From: Gammaproteobacteria bacterium
Lineage (GTDB): Bacteria > Pseudomonadota > Gammaproteobacteria > Nitrosococcales > Methylophagaceae
Length of the DNA: 64,000 nt
Direction: 5' to 3'
Assembly (NCBI GenBank): GCA_029882915.1
Contig: JAOUJZ010000006.1
Span: 2,115 to 66,114, forward strand
Below, in pieces: positions 5,948-15,718 of this stretch. Both the position numbers and the translations under genes were made by a program. The notes below the pieces were generated by a model. The model had not been told where the DNA came from. It did no database searches and worked only from the letters and a program-made list of their open reading frames with translations. How positions within the stretch are numbered: the stretch's first letter is position 1; every line of letters starts with the position of its first letter.

Positions 5948-7141
5948 TTAAGTGTGGCCTTGCTTGGGCGCGACCACACTATTAGGCCTAATATGAGACA
6001 GACCATTAATCACTATGCGTTCACCCGCTTTCAGCCCTGTCAATACAATCCGGTCACTATTGTAGTGAGCGCCCAGAGTGACTTGACGATAGTTTGCCTT
6101 ATTGTCTGCATCGACTACATAAACGAATTGTTTATCCTGATTCGTGCCGACGGCTTTTTGTGGGATCAGTAATACTTCACTTTTGATCGCCGATCCTAAA
6201 CGAACATTAGCAAACATACCGGGCATCAATACGCCATCAACATTTTCTAGAATCGCGCGGGCACGAATTGTACCGCTTGAACTGTTGAGCTGATTATCAA
6301 AAGAATGAACATGCCCTTTATAGACCACGCTTTCATCGGCTGCCAATGTCAGCTCTACCGGCATAGCTCTTGTATCCTGTGAACTACGTACTGACTTGAT
6401 ATAGGTTTGCTCATCAACATTGAATTCGGCATATAATTGCTTGTTTGCCACCAGCGTTGCCAACACCGGTGCATTGGGGGTAGTTGCCACAATATTGCCC
6501 ACTGTCAGCTCTGCTCGACTGACACGACCATCAAATGGCGCATTAATATAACAATACCCTAAATTCAGTTGTGCTTGCACCAGTGCACTTTCAGCTTCCC
6601 TAATGGCAGCAGCACTGACTTGATGCTCGTTTTTTGCTGCATCATAAACACTCTCTGACACTAGTTTGCTCGCAACCAGTCGACGGCTTCGTTCCAATTC
6701 TTCATCAGCCAGCTTTGCACGTGAACTTGCTGAAGCTAATTGTGCTTCAGCCCGTTTAACTGCTGCCTGATGTGGTCGTGGATCAATAACAAACAAGGGA
6801 TCCCCTTGTTTTACTATCTGACCATCTTCAAACAGTACTTTCTTAATTTCCCCTCCAACCAAGGGTTTTATTTCAGCACTATCAACAGCACTCAACCGAC
6901 CAGAAAATCTAGTCCACAATCGAGCATTCTGAGGTTTCAGTTCAAGCACTTCAACCACTGGTGCAGGTCTAACATCTGCGGCCGATGATCCTTGATTGCT
7001 ATTGGTACTGCTAACACCATAAACGTAATAAATGACAGCGACAACAACCAATACGACTGACAGTACAGAAAAAGTTCGACGGATTGACATGGGCTTCAGG
7101 ACTCTTTTGTTATTGTGCGGCAATATATGAAAAAGCTTCAT
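5948..7141 (-). CDS. RND efflux periplasmic adaptor (membrane fusion protein)
   Basis: N-terminal TM anchor, coiled-coil hairpin region (AEAQLASASSRAKLADEELERSRRL ... ALVQAQLNLGY), then beta-barrel regions. It sits upstream of the RND permease. An alternative start lies at 7090 (MSIRRTF). Confidence 0.85.
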   Translation of the reverse strand: MKLFHILPHNNKRVLKPMSIRRTFSVLSVVLVVVAVIYYVYGVSSTNSNQGSSAADVRPAPVVEVLELKPQNARLWTRFSGRLSAVDSAEIKPLVGGEIKKVLFEDGQIVKQGDPLFVIDPRPHQAAVKRAEAQLASASSRAKLADEELERSRRLVASKLVSESVYDAAKNEHQVSAAAIREAESALVQAQLNLGYCYINAPFDGRVSRAELTVGNIVATTPNAPVLATLVANKQLYAEFNVDEQTYIKSVRSSQDTRAMPVELTLAADESVVYKGHVHSFDNQLNSSSGTIRARAILENVDGVLMPGMFANVRLGSAIKSEVLLIPQKAVGTNQDKQFVYVVDADNKANYRQVTLGAHYNSDRIVLTGLKAGERIVINGLSHIRPNSVVAPKQGHT

Positions 7142-7296
7142 TCTAGTGCCTTGACAGGAAAACAGCGAATATTTTACTTAATCAATGGGACATGAACATA
7201 CTTGATATTCAATGGTATGTCACATGTTAATAGTGATTGCCTATTTACACATCATGGAAACTCCTAATCTTCACTGATTTCTACTATTGATGATAC

Positions 7297-7305
7297 TGCT
7301 ATAAT
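7297..7305 (+). promoter_or_regulatory. candidate extended -10 promoter element (TGcTATAAT) for the 7348-9640 cassette
   Basis: TGcTATAAT lies 43 nt upstream of the ATG at 7348. An AGGAG RBS is at 7337-7341. No good -35 was seen. Confidence 0.3.
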
Positions 7306-7347
7306 CAAATTCACTCACATCAGCTATCTATAAATCAGGAGTTTGCC

Positions 7348-7737
7348 ATGGAACACGCACACTATTTCAAACGTAATACCGTCTATAAAATTGATGATGA
7401 CAATATTTCTGTCGTTGATGTGCAAAAAAATAATACCGTCACCCCTCTCGATCCATGGATGGCAGTGGTGGTTTCACTGGCTGATGGTCAGCATACTATC
7501 GACCAGCTCATTCAGTATATGGCTGACCAGTATCCTGACGGCGCTCCTGATAATCTTGTGGAAACGATTGAATCGGTTATTTCACGTCTCACAGATAGCG
7601 ATGTAATTGAATTAACAGCACGCCCATCACTGCTTCCTTATTATCTCCGGGTTCCTATTGATGAACAGGATCCGGAAAAGGCAACTGAGTTAATGTTGGA
7701 AGATGGTTTTATTCAGGCACCCAACATTAATGGCTAA
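7348..7737 (+). CDS. small PqqD-like (RRE-type winged-helix) protein, function unknown
   Basis: 129 aa with an AGGAG RBS. The segment PLDPWMAVVVSLADGQHTIDQLIQYMADQYPDG...LVETIESVISRLTDSDVIEL resembles the PqqD-family pattern. The family call is from memory only. Confidence 0.4.
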   Translation: MEHAHYFKRNTVYKIDDDNISVVDVQKNNTVTPLDPWMAVVVSLADGQHTIDQLIQYMADQYPDGAPDNLVETIESVISRLTDSDVIELTARPSLLPYYLRVPIDEQDPEKATELMLEDGFIQAPNING

Positions 7738-7767
7738 CTTATAATCAAGGCCTGATACAACACTGCT

Positions 7768-8271
7768 ATGCAAACGATTTCATTATGCTGGCAATGCATA
7801 ATTCAAGTATTGTTATTGTTGATCATTGCTAATGGCATGCCCATTCTGGCTCGTAATATTTTTGTTGCACGGTTTAATTGGCCGCTTGATTTTGGCCTCA
7901 CTTTTTTCGACCAACGTCCCTTATTTGGTTACACCAAAACCTGGCGTGGATTATTTTTTTCTATTGTTGTCACCACTTTTGTCGCGTTTTTGCTGGGTAT
8001 GAGTATTTATGATGGCGTACACTTTGGCGTATTGGTGATGGCAGGTGATTTATCTGGCAGCTTTATCAAACGCCGATTGGGATACATAGAAAGCAGTCGA
8101 TTTAGACTTTTAGACGTCATTCCTGAATCTTTTCTGCCGATTTTTATTTTACATCAACAACTTGGGTTAACGGTATTAGACGGGATTATTTGCATTGCTC
8201 TGTTTTTTGTACTGGAAGTCGTGCTATCGTCATTATTGTACCGTCTACATATACGTAAAAGACCTTATTAA
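7768..8271 (+). CDS. DUF46/CarS-like integral-membrane cytidylyltransferase (CDP-archaeol synthase family)
   Basis: 167 aa with about 5 TM helices. Motifs seen are ANGMPIL, a KTWRG loop and GSFIKRRLG...LLD, as in CarS-type CTP:lipid-phosphate cytidylyltransferases. Confidence 0.6.
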   Translation: MQTISLCWQCIIQVLLLLIIANGMPILARNIFVARFNWPLDFGLTFFDQRPLFGYTKTWRGLFFSIVVTTFVAFLLGMSIYDGVHFGVLVMAGDLSGSFIKRRLGYIESSRFRLLDVIPESFLPIFILHQQLGLTVLDGIICIALFFVLEVVLSSLLYRLHIRKRPY

Positions 8272-8306
8272 CAGTAGATGTAGAGATCAAACGGAGTACG
8301 GATGTT

Positions 8307-9059
8307 ATGCAGGAAAATCAGTTACGTATTCTGACATATAACCTCCACAAGGGATTCAGCGTTGGTAACCGTCATTTTATATTGCATCAGATCCGTGAAG
8401 CTCTGGTAGACACGGGTGCTGATATTTTGTTTCTGCAGGAAATGCAGGGCGAACATACCGAACACGAACAAACACACCACAACTGGCCCGAGTGCTCACA
8501 TTCAGACTTTCTCGCTGAGGATGTCTGGCCTCATGTCGCTTATGGAAAGAATGCTGTCTACAAGGTAGGCCACCATGGCAATGCTATTCTCAGCAAACAT
8601 GCATTTCATAGCTGGGAAAATATCAATGTATCTCCGTATGTTTGGGCAAGTCGAAGTTTGTTGCACGCAGTGATTAGATTACCTGAGCATGACGATGATT
8701 TGCACATCATCTGCATTCATCTGGGTTTAATCGGAGCCGAACGTCGACGCCAATTTGACACACTGTGTAAACGCATCGATGGATTTGTTCCCCATGATGC
8801 CCCGTTAATTGTTGCTGGTGACTTTAATGATTGGACGGGGCAGGCTGAAAAACGTTTTTATAAACATCTGAAATTGAAAGAAGCGTTTCGTACATTACAC
8901 AGTCGCTATGCTAAAACCTGGCCGGCCTGGTTTCCTATGTTACCCATGGATCGAATTTATTATCGTGGTATACAGCCTGTGCATTGCGAACGTCCTAACC
9001 ACGCATTATGGAAAAGCCTGTCAGACCATGCGCCATTATTGGCCACTTTTAAGCTATGA
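8307..9059 (+). CDS. endonuclease/exonuclease/phosphatase (EEP) family protein, YbhP-like
   Basis: Blocks seen: LRILTYNLHKGF, ADILFLQE, GHHGNAILSK, IVAGDFNDW and SDHAPLLATFKL. These are EEP catalytic blocks and appear collinear with my recollection of E. coli YbhP. Confidence 0.75.
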   Translation: MQENQLRILTYNLHKGFSVGNRHFILHQIREALVDTGADILFLQEMQGEHTEHEQTHHNWPECSHSDFLAEDVWPHVAYGKNAVYKVGHHGNAILSKHAFHSWENINVSPYVWASRSLLHAVIRLPEHDDDLHIICIHLGLIGAERRRQFDTLCKRIDGFVPHDAPLIVAGDFNDWTGQAEKRFYKHLKLKEAFRTLHSRYAKTWPAWFPMLPMDRIYYRGIQPVHCERPNHALWKSLSDHAPLLATFKL

Positions 9060-9640
9060 CAATACAAAAATTATCATTAAAAGCCTTATTAACACTGCCT
9101 AATTTACTAAGTTGCTTCCGCTTTGTTAGTTCACCGGTATTGTTATGGCTGGCATGGCATGGTTACCAAGAGACATTTCTTATATTACTGGCTGTCACTC
9201 TTTTAACTGATATGCTCGACGGTTTTTTTGCCAGAATGTTAAATCAGCAAAGTGAGCTTGGTGCCTTATTAGACAGTCAAGGTGACTTGGTCATCTATAC
9301 CACGATCGCGGCATCTGTCTGGTGGTTGTGGCCCGACATTGTGCAGCGTGAACTGAGCTATGTCGTCATCGCTATAATCAGTTATTTACTGCCTGTTATC
9401 GTTGGATTTATCAAATTCGGCGCACTAACCAGTTACCACACATGGTTAGTTAAATTCGCTGCTATTAGTATGGGGCTGGCATTTTTTCTCTTATTTGTTT
9501 TTGATATTTCAGAGCCATTTCGTATTGCAGTGTTTATCTGCCTATTGGCTGCAATTGAAGAAATTATCATCACTTTTTATTTGTCTGAATTACGCTCAAA
9601 TATACGCTCACTCTGGCATGCAATAAAAAAGATGTCCTAA
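9056..9640 (+). CDS. CDP-alcohol phosphatidyltransferase (PgsA-like paralogue)
   Basis: The complete motif DMLDGFFARMLNQQSELGALLDSQGD matches D-x2-DG-x2-AR-x8-G-x3-D-x3-D. The N-terminus LPNLLSCFRF is PgsA-like. An ATGA overlap couples it to the EEP gene. Confidence 0.85.
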   Translation: MTIQKLSLKALLTLPNLLSCFRFVSSPVLLWLAWHGYQETFLILLAVTLLTDMLDGFFARMLNQQSELGALLDSQGDLVIYTTIAASVWWLWPDIVQRELSYVVIAIISYLLPVIVGFIKFGALTSYHTWLVKFAAISMGLAFFLLFVFDISEPFRIAVFICLLAAIEEIIITFYLSELRSNIRSLWHAIKKMS

Positions 9641-9645
9641 TCGTA

Positions 9646-10167
9646 CTATTTTACAGTCTTAATCAAGGGCCAGCGCTGCAAGACCTGATATTCCACACCA
9701 TCATCCACACTAACAGACTCAACTAAAACGAAACTTGTTGAGTTCCACAATATTGGCTCCACTGGGATCGTCGGTTTCAATTGGGTTCTTCGCCCCAATG
9801 TGACATGAGCCACATAGGGCCGACTATCAATCCTCACACCGGCTTCGTGCAGGATGTTGTTTATTGCATTGACCAAATCTAAAAGGGATTGTGGCTGCCG
9901 TGCACTGGTCAGGCACAAAATACCGCCTTTTGGCCATAAAGTCAGCTGGTCAAAAACAATACTGACTGGTTCAGCTATAATTTCGTTAGTGCCCTGCCTG
10001 ACAATCTGTTCAACCTCATTACTGACATTACCTAGAAATGCCAGTGTCACATGAAGATTCTCTGGTTTGTATTTCTGTAATTGATCACTTGTTATTGACT
10101 GATTTAGCGTAGCAATTTTCTTACGGATTTTATCCTCAGGCCATAGTGCTAAAAAGAGTTTTTTCAC
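9646..10167 (-). CDS. thpR: RNA 2',3'-cyclic phosphodiesterase (2H family, ThpR/LigT)
   Basis: Two H-x-T-x motifs are present: LHVTLAFLG and AHVTLGRR. The length of 173 aa fits. Confidence 0.85.
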   Translation of the reverse strand: MKKLFLALWPEDKIRKKIATLNQSITSDQLQKYKPENLHVTLAFLGNVSNEVEQIVRQGTNEIIAEPVSIVFDQLTLWPKGGILCLTSARQPQSLLDLVNAINNILHEAGVRIDSRPYVAHVTLGRRTQLKPTIPVEPILWNSTSFVLVESVSVDDGVEYQVLQRWPLIKTVK

Positions 10168-11969: not shown

Positions 11970-13270
11970 TGGAAATTTGGGCTTTAGTGATGTTTGCCGT
12001 GTTATTCCTGCTACTGCTGGTAGGCTTTCCTGTTGCCTTTACCCTCGGCGCTGTAGCGTTTGCCTTTGGCGGCACATTCCTTGGCATGGAATTTTTTAAC
12101 CTGTTGCCACTACGAGTCTGGGGAATCATGACCAATTTCACCCTGTTGGCTGTGCCCTTGTTTGTATTTATGGGTGTCATACTGGAAAAGTCAGGGATTG
12201 CTGAAGAGTTACTGGAAACCATGGGGCGTTTGTTTGGCCGGGTTCGTGGTGGCCTGGCTATTTCTGTTGTTGCAGTCGGTGCTTTATTAGCAGCAACTAC
12301 TGGTGTCGTAGGTGCATCTGTGGTCACAATGGCAGTCATTGCCCTACCTGCGATGTTAAAACATGGGTATGCGCCCAGCCTTGCCAGCGGCACTATCGCT
12401 GCATCCGGTACCTTAGGTCAAATTATTCCACCCAGTATTATTCTGATTTTATTAGGTGATGTGATCGGTGTGCCTGTCGGCCAGTTATTTATTGCCGCGG
12501 CAGTTCCGGGCATGATGCTGGTTCTCGCTTATATGGCCTATATTGGTTTTGTAGCATGGCGCCATCCTGAGTTGGCACCGGCTATTGAAACCGTCCCCGA
12601 TGATCAGCATCTTGCCGTTCAAGTAGCTAAAAGTCTATTTCCCCCATTAGCACTTGTACTGGCAGTATTAGGCTCTATCTTTTTTGGTGTTGCTTCACCA
12701 ACTGAATCTGCTGCCGTTGGTGCTCTGGGTGCAATGTTACTTGCCACCATCCATAAAAAATTGAACCTTGCCAACTTACGTGACGCCCTCCAACAAACCA
12801 CTCGCCTGACCAGCATGGTGTTTTTAATTCTAATTGGAGCCACTGCGTTTGGACTGGTGTTTGTTGGTATGGGTGGTGATAGCCTTATATTCGATATTTT
12901 TAACAGTCTTCCCGGCGGAAAGTGGAGCTTTCTGATTCTCAGTATGCTGTTAATCTTTGTATTGGGTTTCTTTCTGGATTTTATTGAAATTTGTTTTATT
13001 GTAGTGCCAATTATCGCACCCGTTGCCATACATATGGGACTGGATCCCTTGTGGTTTGCCCTGCTGATCGCTTTAAATCTACAAACGTCATTTTTAACGC
13101 CGCCTTTTGGCTTTTCGTTGTTTTATCTTAAAGCCAGTGCTCCTCCCACACTGAAACTGCAATCAATCTATCGTGGCATCATGCCGTTTGTAGCCATTCA
13201 ACTGATCGTGTTGGCACTACTAATCACTTTTCCAGCAATAAGCTTATGGCTACCAGGCTTAATGGAATGA
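11969..13270 (+). CDS. TRAP transporter large permease subunit (DctM-type)
   Basis: 433 aa, polytopic, with a DctM-like sequence throughout. It is coupled to the small subunit. Confidence 0.88.
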   Translation: MEIWALVMFAVLFLLLLVGFPVAFTLGAVAFAFGGTFLGMEFFNLLPLRVWGIMTNFTLLAVPLFVFMGVILEKSGIAEELLETMGRLFGRVRGGLAISVVAVGALLAATTGVVGASVVTMAVIALPAMLKHGYAPSLASGTIAASGTLGQIIPPSIILILLGDVIGVPVGQLFIAAAVPGMMLVLAYMAYIGFVAWRHPELAPAIETVPDDQHLAVQVAKSLFPPLALVLAVLGSIFFGVASPTESAAVGALGAMLLATIHKKLNLANLRDALQQTTRLTSMVFLILIGATAFGLVFVGMGGDSLIFDIFNSLPGGKWSFLILSMLLIFVLGFFLDFIEICFIVVPIIAPVAIHMGLDPLWFALLIALNLQTSFLTPPFGFSLFYLKASAPPTLKLQSIYRGIMPFVAIQLIVLALLITFPAISLWLPGLME

Positions 13271-15718
13271 TAGTTGGAGATCGTTTTTTGTAGCAGGAAA
13301 ATAAAACGCGGCAGCACCATATAACATCACTGCCAGCATAATGAGTACACTGAACCCAAATTGCATCGCAATCAGTGTGGCTAAAATAGCACTGATAACG
13401 GAAGCACAGCCATTGATGCCCCATGCCCAGGGAATCAGTTCAGCTTGGGTTTGACTGAGCCTGGCAAGCGCCAATGGAAACGGTATTCCCATACAAAAGC
13501 CCAATGGTGCAATCAATAGAATCGACAGCATATATTTTGTTAGATCTGCTTGTTGCAACAAAAATGCGGCGATCAGATCAAAATTCAGCATGTAAGTGAT
13601 GGTCAATACGGCAATCATCATAACGGGCACAACTATCGTTAATTTAGAGTCAGAGTCTGACAGTGTCCGTGAAAAATAGCTGCCTGCTCCAGCAGTTACT
13701 AGAAAAGCACTCAATACCAGCGTAATGGCATAAAGTGGGTGATGAAGGATCAGAATAAACTTCTGAATAAAAGCGATTTCAATAAACAAAAAAGCCAGTC
13801 CCAGACAGAAAAAATACACCAACACTCGCTTGTGTTGCTGACTGCCACTCTGAATACCCAATTTGTGTTTCCATAACCACAGTGGCAATGCTATCAATAA
13901 CACACTGGCAACTATCGCCTGAAAGAGTGCCGCTATCAGCAACAGATAACCACTTTCTAATAAAAACAGGCCGCCACTGTCTATCAATGAAATAATTTCT
14001 GGTAACGTCTGCCATTTAAAAAACTGTGAAAAGTATGGCTGGTCATCTGTTGCCGGTTGAATATTAAATTTGTAGGAATCTATAAAAGCCTCATACTGGT
14101 CACCTAGCAATTCCACAGCCGCCTGATATAAATAAGGCTGTTGCAGGATATTAAACTGATTAGCCTCTTGCTCATTGATGCCGGGATAAAAAACCAGGTC
14201 AAAATTACGCTCACGGCAAAACTGTTTTAGTTTTGCAATTTCAATGGCCGTGATACTGCCATTTTTCACTATTAATGTGCTGGTTTGCCAACTACGAATC
14301 ACCATTATCTGCTGTGCAGGATCTGTGGCATAGTTTTCTTCCAATACATTACTTACCATTACCAGCAGTTTGGGCATATCACGGGGTGGCAGTTTAATCC
14401 AGCGTGTCAGGGTTAAATAGCCATCAGGAGATAAGTTCTGCAGATAATTCTGTATCGCCTGTTCGGTATACAAATAATTCTCAGCCATTGAATACAGTCC
14501 CGCTGCCGAAGCACCAAATGCATCCATTAATGAAATTGAAATCAGGTCGTAACTTTTATCACTACTCATCACAAAACCACGAGCTTCAGCCGTGTGAATC
14601 GTCACTTCTGGACTGGAATAAATATCGCCAGCCAGATCGGCATACCGATCCTTAATCAAATTAATAATTTGTGGGTTCTGTTCAACGGCATCAATATGTT
14701 TCACCTTATGAAAACGTGCCTGCAGTATGTCACTGCCCGTCCCTGCTCCTAGAATAAGCACATCCGATAAAGAGGATAAATGATAGGGCAATGCAGACGT
14801 CGTTTGATCCAGATAACGAATAGGTTCAAGATTGCCATCAAAAGAGGTGATGGCTGACATATTATCGCCATCTGTAAACACCGCCAGCTGTTCTGGTGGT
14901 TCCACATCCGCATTGATACTCATCCCCGGCGCATGGCGTAAAGGCATTTGCTTTGTTTCGACGACAGAAATTAAACCCAATGGACTGGATTGCTGCTCAA
15001 TTATTCGAGTGGCTGGAATAGTAAGAAACTGGTTCTGGCTTTTATAGGGCGAAATAATCAGTGTTCCTAGATCCGGCAATAGTGCCATTGCACCTATAGC
15101 AACAACAATAATGGCACTGTTCCATTTTTTTCTATTGATATGTTGTGCAAAAGTACGGGTAGATAACAGTAATGCTGACATCAGAACCACAAACAGCAAT
15201 ACCATTAATACTTTTTCCGGAAACATCATAAACAACAACACAATAATGCCGACACTGCCCGCACCCGCACCTAACAGGTCAGAGGCATAAAGCGATGACA
15301 CCTGTTGCTGATACTGATAAAACGACAGCCCAATGACATTAGCAGCAAAAAAGAAGGGCATGGTCAGTATTAAATAAACACTGCATAAATAAAGTAATTG
15401 CACTGGATCCCATAAAATCTCAGCTGGATTAAAAGGGATCTGCTGCGCCAACAAAAAACAGGCGGGCATTGAGATACTGAGACATAGCAGATGAGCTAAA
15501 ATAACTGTCGGGAAATGACGTGTCAGTCGTTGTCGATTTAAGGCTAGAAAAACCCCACTCACGCCATACCCCAACAAAGCCAGGCTAATAATCATGTAAG
15601 CAAAATGATGCCACTGAATGATCGAAAACAGACGCATCAGTAACACTTCATACGCCAAAGCCGAGGCAGAAACAGTTGCAATAACCAGCAAATAGGATCT
15701 GGACAGATGGGAATCCAT
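13259..15718 (-). CDS. membrane-embedded spermidine synthase-like / class I SAM-dependent transferase-fold protein with two polytopic modules
   Basis: 819 aa. The N-terminal TM module contains YEVLLMRLFSIIQWHHFAYMIISLALLGYGVSG. The central soluble domain has the Rossmann motif VLILGAGTGSDIL followed by DLISISLMD. The C-terminal TM module contains IEIAFIQKFILILHHPLYAITLVLSAFLVTAGAGS and AWGINGCASV. Confidence 0.65.
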   Translation of the reverse strand: MDSHLSRSYLLVIATVSASALAYEVLLMRLFSIIQWHHFAYMIISLALLGYGVSGVFLALNRQRLTRHFPTVILAHLLCLSISMPACFLLAQQIPFNPAEILWDPVQLLYLCSVYLILTMPFFFAANVIGLSFYQYQQQVSSLYASDLLGAGAGSVGIIVLLFMMFPEKVLMVLLFVVLMSALLLSTRTFAQHINRKKWNSAIIVVAIGAMALLPDLGTLIISPYKSQNQFLTIPATRIIEQQSSPLGLISVVETKQMPLRHAPGMSINADVEPPEQLAVFTDGDNMSAITSFDGNLEPIRYLDQTTSALPYHLSSLSDVLILGAGTGSDILQARFHKVKHIDAVEQNPQIINLIKDRYADLAGDIYSSPEVTIHTAEARGFVMSSDKSYDLISISLMDAFGASAAGLYSMAENYLYTEQAIQNYLQNLSPDGYLTLTRWIKLPPRDMPKLLVMVSNVLEENYATDPAQQIMVIRSWQTSTLIVKNGSITAIEIAKLKQFCRERNFDLVFYPGINEQEANQFNILQQPYLYQAAVELLGDQYEAFIDSYKFNIQPATDDQPYFSQFFKWQTLPEIISLIDSGGLFLLESGYLLLIAALFQAIVASVLLIALPLWLWKHKLGIQSGSQQHKRVLVYFFCLGLAFLFIEIAFIQKFILILHHPLYAITLVLSAFLVTAGAGSYFSRTLSDSDSKLTIVVPVMMIAVLTITYMLNFDLIAAFLLQQADLTKYMLSILLIAPLGFCMGIPFPLALARLSQTQAELIPWAWGINGCASVISAILATLIAMQFGFSVLIMLAVMLYGAAAFYFPATKNDLQLSFH

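Follow-up and report, generated by a model that had tools for sequence, protein, structure and literature searches.

The 64,000-nucleotide window analysed here (contig JAOUJZ010000006.1 of a gammaproteobacterium of the family Methylophagaceae, assembly GCA_029882915.1; all positions are those of the window) contains four closely spaced open reading frames (ORFs) on one strand, three of which form a conserved module of methane- and methyl-oxidising bacteria that most likely makes a non-housekeeping CDP-activated phospholipid. The products of these three genes are a CarS-type cytidylyltransferase (ORF2), a YbhP-type EEP-fold phosphoesterase (ORF3) and a CDP-alcohol phosphatidyltransferase (CAPT, ORF4). 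The conserved core of the module is the pair of EEP and CAPT genes; the CarS-like gene often accompanies it as an accessory and has been lost repeatedly. The remaining gene, ORF1, is a lineage-specific chance neighbour that does not belong to the conserved lipid module. The four genes and the junction between the last two are as follows.

7348-7737, + strand: ORF1, 129 amino acids, predicted PqqD/RRE-like fold
7768-8271, + strand: ORF2, 167 amino acids, CarS-type, predicted five-transmembrane CTP:lipid-phosphate cytidylyltransferase
8307-9059, + strand: ORF3, 250 amino acids, YbhP-type EEP-fold phosphoesterase, predicted to be metal-dependent
9056-9640, + strand: ORF4, 194 amino acids, CAPT
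9056-9059, + strand: ATGA stop/start overlap of ORF3 and ORF4, read in the sequence and expected to couple their translation

These are real genes rather than chance ORFs, because ORF2, ORF3 and ORF4 match Pfam families with E-values of 4e-14, 7e-19 and 1e-18, respectively, and because each of the four has hundreds to thousands of homologues. Gaps of 30 nt (ORF1-ORF2) and 35 nt (ORF2-ORF3) separate the genes upstream of the overlap. The four + strand ORFs, their spacing, the overlap, the protein motifs quoted for them and two upstream elements described below were all present as given in the original prediction, an earlier reading of this DNA made from its letters alone.

Conservation of the gene order

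The original prediction had treated ORF1 to ORF4 as one self-contained cassette. We examined which of these genes occur together in other genomes. A scan centred on the CarS-like gene, with one genome per species, recovered at least 544 relatives; the best 80 loci were analysed, 79 of which have room downstream. A second scan, centred on the CAPT gene, drew on metagenome contigs and used the best 80 of 336 relatives, with at least 1.9 kb of upstream sequence in 46 loci. In the first set, a CarS-like gene, an EEP gene and a CAPT gene follow one another in this order on one strand in 50 of the 79 loci, the others having the CarS-like and CAPT genes without EEP (2), EEP only (3) or neither (24). 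In the second set, the EEP gene directly precedes the CAPT gene wherever the locus has room for it: 26 of the 46 have the complete CarS-EEP-CAPT trio, 18 have EEP-CAPT only, two have ORF1-EEP-CAPT and none has all four genes. The coupling seen in the window is likewise widespread, since at 95 of the 111 junctions the end of the EEP gene and the start of the CAPT gene have 4 nt in common.

The order ORF2-ORF3-ORF4 thus recurs, and it does so without ORF1. The ORF1 gene was found in none of the 80 CarS-centred loci, is missing from 78 of the 80 CAPT-centred loci and, of some 165 related loci overall, is lacking in about 163; none of these loci has the four genes together. On these counts we rejected the four-gene unit, with ORF1 as the outsider.

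The genes that flank the trio vary, comprising KdsB and an aminotransferase in Methylobacter, ThyA and GyrB in Methylomarinum and a multicopper oxidase elsewhere, and because the trio is found in so many different contexts it behaves as an autonomous unit. Adjacency of the CarS-like and CAPT genes also holds in divergent members at 42-48% identity (L065, L071 and L080). The closest syntenic relatives of the window share the arrangement EEP-CAPT-(ThpR)-YaaA-DUF4389-DctQM without a CarS-like gene, and carry HtpG and a DUF5610-like gene upstream in its stead. In a rough neighbour-joining tree of concatenated EEP and CAPT sequences from 105 loci, the window nests within a clade of the EEP-CAPT pair type, the outgroup locus is a trio, and loci without an adjacent CarS-like gene occupy at least four separate places among the trio clades. 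These scattered positions argue that the adjacent CarS-like gene was repeatedly lost or moved while the EEP-CAPT pair was kept.

The three enzymes of the module

Three conserved stretches of the predicted proteins are referred to below.

8044-8082, + strand: ORF2 core motif G93-D94-L-S-G-S98-F-I-K101-R102-R103-L-G105, predicted nucleotide/phosphate-binding loop shared with the Aeropyrum pernix CDP-archaeol synthase ApCarS
9209-9286, + strand: ORF4 catalytic motif D52-x2-D55-G56-x2-A59-R60-x8-G69-x3-D73-x3-D77, read in the sequence
9413-9454, + strand: ORF4 subfamily signature K120-F121-x4-S126-Y127-H128-T129-W130-x2-K133, putative acceptor-binding loop

ORF4 matches the CAPT family PF01066 at 68.5 bits (cut-off 22) and possesses the perfect catalytic motif that had been predicted for it, at residues 52-77; of the 125 full-length representatives of the family, 112 retain this motif. 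The subfamily signature is similarly well maintained. Over 126 aligned sequences, K/R120 is found in 125, S126 in 88, Y127 in 106, H128 in 123, T129 in 105 and K/R133 in 121, giving the loop consensus [KR]120-[FY]121-x4-S-Y-H128-T-x3-[KR]133, whereas neither PgsA nor YnbA of E. coli has the SYHT-x3-K signature. The loop may bind the acceptor.

ORF4 falls below every functional cut-off in NCBIfam. Its best curated model is that of the CAPT-type cardiolipin synthase ClsA (NF053678; 57.5 bits versus a cut-off of 240), and the same model is the best match of all 68 diverse members of the ORF4 family that were tested. Scores against the other models are lower still: 37.7 bits versus 170 for phosphatidylinositol-phosphate (PIP) synthase (NF045883), 37.4 versus 180 for archaetidylinositol-phosphate synthase (NF040950), and 32.9 versus 109.1 (TIGR00560) and 26.6 versus 304 (PRK10832) for PgsA. 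The failure of both PgsA models bears out the earlier view that ORF4 is not an ordinary housekeeping PgsA. Alignments by BLASTP cover only 73 residues around the motif in E. coli PgsA (33% identity) and only 37 residues across the motif in YnbA, and the family profile matches phosphatidylserine synthase, PgsA and PIP synthase structures in the PDB weakly, in the motif region only and with none favoured. An exhaustive search over 1.84 billion representatives, clustered at 50% identity, placed 71 clusters in the family at E <= 1e-30 and 678 at E <= 1e-10. Taken as a whole, these comparisons point to a distinct, uncurated CAPT subfamily whose nearest characterised relative is the CDP-diacylglycerol (CDP-DAG)-dependent cardiolipin synthase and which, as judged by these scores, is not PgsA, YnbA or PIP synthase.

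Some relatives of ORF4 (P0261, P0296, P0273 and P0317) are fused to a PAS-histidine kinase, a lysyl-oxidase-like domain, DUF2784 and DUF6122, and these fusions may be real or may be gene-calling artefacts on metagenome contigs. Considered as a Rosetta-stone clue to the acceptor, such long CAPT relatives proved uninformative, the domains that they carry being unrelated.

ORF2 matches PF01864 (CarS/DUF46) at 53.5 bits (cut-off 22) over residues 23-167, with no match to PF01148 (CdsA) in the same Pfam search, and contains the motifs ANGMPIL, KTWRG and GSFIKRRLG on which its original assignment had been based. By sequence it is related to the solved ApCarS (PDB 5GUF) with an E-value of 3e-8. An AlphaFold2 model built from 14 homologues (pLDDT 86.7) has five helices, and 5GUF is its only significant match in the PDB (TM-scores 0.71/0.74, probability 1.0), no CdsA structure being among the fold matches; nor did BLASTP detect significant similarity between ORF2 and E. 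coli CdsA or YnbB. Residues N22, D41, K57-T58, G93-D94-x3-S98-F-x-K101-R102-R103-x-G105 and D116 are invariant in the alignment of the bacterial ORF2 family, and this polar core aligns with identical residues of 5GUF, in which AGDMAGSFVKRRLG stands opposite the core motif. The score of ORF2 against the archaeal CarS equivalog NF003114 is 63.3 bits, below the cut-off of 148. Sequence and modelled fold together indicate a CarS-fold cytidylyltransferase rather than a CdsA, as had been proposed, and this assignment does not imply the same substrate as that of CarS.

Outside the Methylococcales, the CarS-like gene has a different companion. It stands tail-to-tail with the gene of a calcineurin-like metallophosphoesterase, which lies 0-75 nt downstream on the opposite strand and usually at 0-11 nt or overlapping. 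This arrangement was seen in 15 of 16 loci (L053, L055-L057, L059, L062, L066, L068, L069, L073-L075 and L077-L079), in Alphaproteobacteria, Thiogranum, Sedimenticola, Porticoccaceae, Methylohalobius and a 'delta proteobacterium'. The best NCBIfam matches of the metallophosphoesterase are YaeI and the UDP-diacylglucosamine diphosphatase LpxG, both under cut-off, and the placement of a nucleotide-diphosphate-lipid hydrolase beside a CDP-lipid synthase suggests a make-and-break pair.

ORF3 matches the EEP family PF03372 at 68.8 bits and is collinear with E. coli K-12 YbhP over its full length (41% identity, 249 of 250 residues, E = 8e-66), so that the resemblance noted in the original prediction is real. 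In descriptions of the ybhP-clsB-ybhN operon, YbhP is given as a protein without known function. The best of the PRK05421-type equivalog models, NF003842, gives 68.1 bits, below its cut-off of 144. Residues N12, E45, H138, D172, N174, D215 and D240-H241 show no variation among 13 homologues, of which YbhP is one, and, by their pattern, correspond to the standard EEP metal-binding and catalytic set. The ORF3 sequence contains neither a signal peptide nor a membrane segment, consistent with a cytoplasmic EEP phosphoesterase. A single-sequence search of the PDB with ORF3 returned no match; the family profile has weak matches, among which uncharacterised EEPs score best (about 1e-5) and the characterised solved relatives are Staphylococcus aureus beta-hemolysin/sphingomyelinase C (6e-5), Tdp2 (3e-4) and Bacillus sphingomyelinase.

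Relatives of ORF3 are also found on their own. One is the EEP gene of Methylophaga lonarensis MPL (L172, 5001-5753), which has no transferase neighbour, and another (L173, 5001-5756) adjoins Hsp33 and HtpG, as in the syntenic relatives of the window.

Candidate reactions and known counterparts

For the chemistry of the module we tentatively favour accessory, CDP-DAG-dependent phosphatidyl transfer with a cardiolipin-type product, in which the lipid substrate, the acceptor, the product and the substrate of the EEP protein are those that we infer. ORF2 would use CTP to activate a lipid phosphate of the membrane, phosphatidic acid being the likeliest, and would so provide a dedicated local pool of CDP-DAG. 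In the committed step, ORF4 would move the phosphatidyl group from the CDP-lipid, with release of CMP, to a hydroxyl on an acceptor that is anionic or a polyol; this acceptor would most likely be phosphatidylglycerol (PG) or a related glycerol-based head group, yielding a cardiolipin-type lipid. ORF3, which translational coupling would keep in a fixed ratio to the CAPT, would act on the head-group side, on either the acceptor or the product, and its role would equal that of YbhP beside the unrelated phospholipase D (PLD)-type transferase ClsB in E. coli.

Each part of this proposal has its own grounds. CDP-DAG is the most likely donor because the EEP-CAPT pair persists in loci without an adjacent CarS-like gene, where the housekeeping CdsA could supply it, and a dedicated second cytidylyltransferase is plausible because E. 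coli YnbB serves a dedicated, non-bulk purpose (PMC6362211). A cardiolipin-type reaction is hinted at independently by the nearest curated family of the CAPT subfamily, which is the CDP-DAG-dependent cardiolipin synthase, and by its fixed partner, a homologue of the YbhP that accompanies ClsB; a YbhP-type protein thus travels with two non-homologous phosphatidyl transferases, the CAPT and the PLD-type ClsB. The near-invariant basic and polar loop residues K/R120, H128 and K/R133 would fit an anionic or polyol acceptor.

Several observations weigh against this proposal. None of the 68 ORF4-family members reaches the 240-bit ClsA cut-off (best E 7.7e-19), and their second commonest match, in 61 of the 68, is the pgsA model. 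A cardiolipin synthase needs no hydrolase, and the EEP protein is given no defined chemical step. The physiological role of ClsB is itself uncertain, as it also makes PG and trehalose phospholipids, and for this reason the partnership with YbhP does not specify cardiolipin. YbhP-like EEP genes that are 69-70% identical to ORF3 occur without an adjacent CAPT or ClsB gene (L172 and L173), which argues that the EEP protein has a function independent of an adjacent transferase. The tree from which the history of the CarS-like gene was read has no support values. Finally, phosphatidic acid as the ORF2 substrate is an assumption, and archaeal CarS prefers the isoprenoid lipid digeranylgeranylglyceryl phosphate (DGGGP) to phosphatidic acid and fails to complement E. 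coli cdsA (PMC9385802).

The activate, transfer and trim logic of the original prediction is still a live hypothesis, and we regard the route that it implies as a close second to the favoured one, possible though doubtful. Here ORF2 would again make CDP-DAG, ORF4 would be a phosphatidylglycerol-phosphate (PGP) or PIP synthase acting on glycerol-3-phosphate or inositol-1-phosphate, and the EEP protein would trim the phosphate to give PG or phosphatidylinositol. The three genes would then encode three consecutive steps, each with a defined job, and the tight coupling of ORF3 and ORF4 suits sequential enzymes. The breadth of the pgsA match within the ORF4 family points the same way, as do matches of the 68 members to the models for archaetidylinositol-phosphate synthase (58) and PIP synthase (29); the conserved K/R120, H128 and K/R133 could bind the phosphate of the acceptor; and the EEP superfamily includes head-group phosphomonoesterases, the inositol polyphosphate 5-phosphatases. 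However, ORF4 itself lies far under the PgsA and PIP synthase cut-offs, the nearest characterised solved relatives of the EEP protein are phosphodiesterases and not inositol phosphatases, and there is no inositol-phosphate synthase among the called neighbours. The enterobacterial system offers no help to this route either, given that ClsB, the partner of YbhP, makes no phosphorylated intermediate and that E. coli lacking pgpA, pgpB and pgpC is inviable despite the presence of ybhP. It is, in our view, unlikely that ORF3 is instead a phosphodiesterase of the phospholipase C/sphingomyelinase type that turns over or remodels the CAPT product, perhaps with release of diacylglycerol or a phospho-head group, the two enzymes forming a synthesis-turnover or head-group-delivery couple rather than a linear pathway. 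Among the characterised proteins of solved structure that the ORF3 profile matches, those of the sphingomyelinase C type rank highest, the canonical EEP catalytic residues are invariant, solitary YbhP-like genes are what one would expect of an enzyme acting on a common lipid, and the tail-to-tail pairing of CarS-like genes with a YaeI/LpxG-like, pyrophosphatase-type metallophosphoesterase provides a parallel elsewhere. Yet the sphingomyelinase matches are weak (E about 1e-4 to 1e-2) and are outscored by uncharacterised EEPs, ORF3 has neither a signal peptide nor a membrane segment, and a couple that synthesizes and degrades in fixed stoichiometry would be futile unless regulated.

We hold it to be quite improbable that ORF2 activates a non-diacyl lipid phosphate (isoprenoid, ether-linked or bulky) from which the CAPT would build an archaeal-like or unprecedented phospholipid. 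This possibility draws on the place of ORF2 in the CarS and not the CdsA subfamily by both sequence and fold, and on the properties of characterised CarS enzymes, which prefer DGGGP and have lipid grooves wider than those of CdsA (PMC9385802). Moreover, carriers presumably own a CdsA already, and a second, different cytidylyltransferase suggests a different substrate. What speaks against it is that EEP-CAPT occurs without an adjacent CarS-like gene in 20 of the 46 CAPT-centred loci and at the four or more places in the tree, which points to a common donor; that no GGGPS/DGGGPS-type or other isoprenoid-lipid gene recurs near the approximately 165 loci; and that ORF2 falls well short of the archaeal CarS equivalog cut-off. 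Two further readings are, even jointly, very improbable. One is that ORF4 is the housekeeping PGP synthase: it has a PgsA-like N-terminus and motif, with the short region of 33% identity noted above, and no other pgsA is found in the window, where housekeeping cdsA, pssA and clsB are likewise missing, a result that is uninformative for the genome as a whole. Both PgsA equivalog models fail by a wide margin, however, PgsA lacks the ORF4 loop signature, and the ORF4 gene is patchy among close relatives, which is unexpected of an essential gene. The other is that all four genes constitute a peptide- or protein-directed modification system, in keeping with the RRE-type peptide-binding fold of ORF1 and its position 30 nt upstream of ORF2; the absence of ORF1 from nearly all related loci and its unrelated contexts elsewhere argue otherwise.

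The module would function in the manner of a CdsA/CAPT head-group pathway. Compared with characterised systems, it resembles CAPT-type cardiolipin synthesis, the ybhP-clsB-ybhN operon, the archaeal CarS-CAPT pathway and the ynbABCD operon and is a member of none of them. With the ClsA enzymes of actinobacteria and eukaryotes (NF053678), ORF4 has in common its superfamily, motif and size (about 190 amino acids, all membrane), and it differs from them in its score relative to the model cut-off, in the family's own SYHT-x3-K signature and in the obligate coupling of its gene to that of a YbhP-type EEP protein, with a CarS-type gene often linked as well. We know of no report of EEP or CarS-type gene coupling for ClsA-type enzymes. 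In ybhP-clsB-ybhN of E. coli, as here, the EEP gene runs straight into the gene for a phosphatidyl transferase, which lies next downstream and overlaps it; the partner in our module is a CAPT that would use a CDP-activated donor rather than the PLD-type ClsB, and a CarS-type gene is added upstream. Homologues of ClsB and YbhN were found neither in the window nor beside the EEP gene in the loci examined, with the exception of one ClsB match (L070).

The archaeal pathway comprises the same pair of enzymes, a five-transmembrane CarS-fold enzyme feeding a CAPT (archaetidylserine, archaetidylglycerol-phosphate or archaetidylinositol-phosphate synthase). By contrast, the host here is bacterial, there is no GGGPS/DGGGPS context, ORF2 remains under the equivalog cut-off and its substrate is probably diacyl. 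The ynbABCD operon of E. coli encodes a CAPT (YnbA), a CdsA paralogue (YnbB), a hydrolase/methyltransferase (YnbC) and a phosphatase (YnbD) and, with its non-essential CAPT beside an additional CTP:lipid-phosphate cytidylyltransferase and at least one hydrolase, sets a precedent for dedicated supply of CDP-DAG. YnbB itself is not wholly uncharacterised, as it contributes to synthesis of the glycolipid MPIase (PMC6362211). The architectural resemblance to ynbABCD put forward in the original prediction turns out to be an analogy of enzyme classes only: no gene is orthologous, ORF4 and YnbA align over the motif alone, the comparison of ORF2 with YnbB (E 0.028) is not significant and sets a CarS-subfamily protein against a CdsA-subfamily one, and ORF3 matches neither YnbC nor YnbD. 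PgsA with PgpA/B/C, and PIP synthase with PIP phosphatase, likewise place a phosphoesterase step after a CAPT step, and ORF4 shares the N-terminal helix of PgsA; ORF4 nevertheless fails both sets of models, and the phosphoesterase here has the EEP fold. To our knowledge, none of the known PGP and PIP phosphatases belongs to the EEP family.

In agreement with the statement that no experimental work on this gene combination was known, a literature search found none, nor did it turn up any study that characterises YbhP, a CarS homologue from Proteobacteria or an EEP-CAPT pairing; its coverage of subscription journals was partial, and absence from it is not proof.

ORF1, genomic surroundings and carriers

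ORF1 has 371 homologues at up to 81% identity. Its AlphaFold2 model (pLDDT 93.2) finds its best compact fold matches in the lasso-peptide leader-binding RRE proteins TbiB1 (5V1V) and B1 (6JX3), with a TM-score (target) of 0.75, an rmsd of 2.7 and a probability of 1.0 for TbiB1 and weak E-values (0.03 or above), and it also matches the RRE domains of MibB, MadB (lanthipeptide dehydratases being among the matches) and TglHI. A PqqD assignment by PF05402, one of the models proposed for searching in the original prediction, does not hold at the sequence level (16.9 bits, under the gathering cut-off of 23.4), and the model points to a winged-helix fold of the PqqD/RRE type. In this window ORF1 is probably co-transcribed with the lipid genes. 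Besides this lineage, it adjoins EEP-CAPT in only one other, a lineage of the Piscirickettsiaceae. Elsewhere the family stands alone beside RND pump, mraZ cluster or ATP synthase genes, or lies upstream of ATP-grasp and glycosyltransferase genes. At one such locus (L170, 4001-4378) the ORF1-family gene precedes those of a 630-amino-acid ATP-grasp protein and a GT1-type glycosyltransferase, and at another (L171, 4001-4381) it follows two small ORFs and precedes the same glycosyltransferase and Ysc84. This neighbourhood may represent an undescribed system of the kind that makes ribosomally synthesized and post-translationally modified peptides, or one for peptide glycosylation.

Two elements upstream of ORF1 were read in the sequence.

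7297-7305, + strand: TGCTATAAT, extended -10-like element, of putative function
7337-7341, + strand: AGGAG ribosome-binding site, 6 nt 5' of the ORF1 ATG

A consensus scan found no full sigma-70 -35/-10 promoter on the + strand, and the element before ORF1 would be at most an extended -10. An Rfam scan of positions 7000-9800 at permissive E-values found no regulatory RNA. Two overlapping terminator-like hairpins with T-runs lie at 7870-7897 on the + strand, inside the coding region of ORF2, and are probably due to chance, 2 having been found against 2.1 expected after shuffling.

As predicted, the genes on both sides of the four ORFs have the opposite orientation, these being an RND adaptor gene (5948-7141, - strand) and a ThpR (ThpR/LigT) gene (9646-10167, - strand). 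Farther out are a chromate transporter, a GGDEF protein and an RND pump with its adaptor on the RND side, and YaaA, DUF4389, TRAP DctQ/DctM, PCMT, an EpmA-like protein and EF-P on the ThpR side. A foreign island was ruled out, as GC content runs without discontinuity from the four genes (0.39-0.44) to their flanks (0.37-0.50). A role in anti-phage defence was also rejected, since PADLOC matches none of ORF2, ORF3 and ORF4 and gives ORF1 only a 14-bit match at chance level. Elsewhere in the window, an 819-amino-acid ORF (13259-15718, - strand) has only a weak central spermidine/spermine-synthase-like domain (35 bits), with no assignment for its remaining parts.

The recovered carriers of the module (L001-L052, L082 and L087-L166) are mainly Gammaproteobacteria that oxidise one-carbon (C1) compounds, including Methylobacter, Methylomonas, Methylomarinum, Methyloprofundus, Methylomicrobium, a methanotrophic endosymbiont of Bathymodiolus and Methylophaga/Piscirickettsiaceae-like genomes. 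The link to C1 oxidisers may be a matter of sampling bias rather than ecology, since the scans kept only the most similar loci. Cultured carriers are Methylobacter tundripaludum SV96, Methylomicrobium sp. wino1, Methylomonas lenta and Methylobacter psychrophilus, and individual proteins of the module have recorded homologues in Methylomarinum vadi and Methylomarinum sp. Ch1-1.

CarS-type enzymes are usually seen as an archaeal hallmark, and their presence in the genomes of at least 544 species shows them to be common in Proteobacteria, where their genes have as partner either a CAPT gene or that of a YaeI/LpxG-like phosphoesterase. The strictness of the 'lipid divide' at the step of head-group activation is thereby called into question. 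For methanotrophs and methylotrophs, whose membranes are of ecological and biotechnological importance, the module raises the possibility of an unrecognised lipid, which could matter for membrane biology or serve as a biomarker. Were the substrate of ORF2 to be a non-diacyl lipid phosphate, the product would be a phospholipid class undescribed in bacteria, and a working 'archaeal' mode of head-group activation would exist in widespread methanotrophs and methylotrophs; the known principles of phospholipid synthesis are unchanged unless the product of the module proves to be unusual. For YbhP, the translational coupling of a homologue to an unrelated class of transferase, seen in hundreds of loci, predicts a role for hydrolases of this type on the head-group side of the phosphatidyl-transfer reaction, and the module provides a genetic handle on this protein, whose role in the E. 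coli clsB operon was never established.

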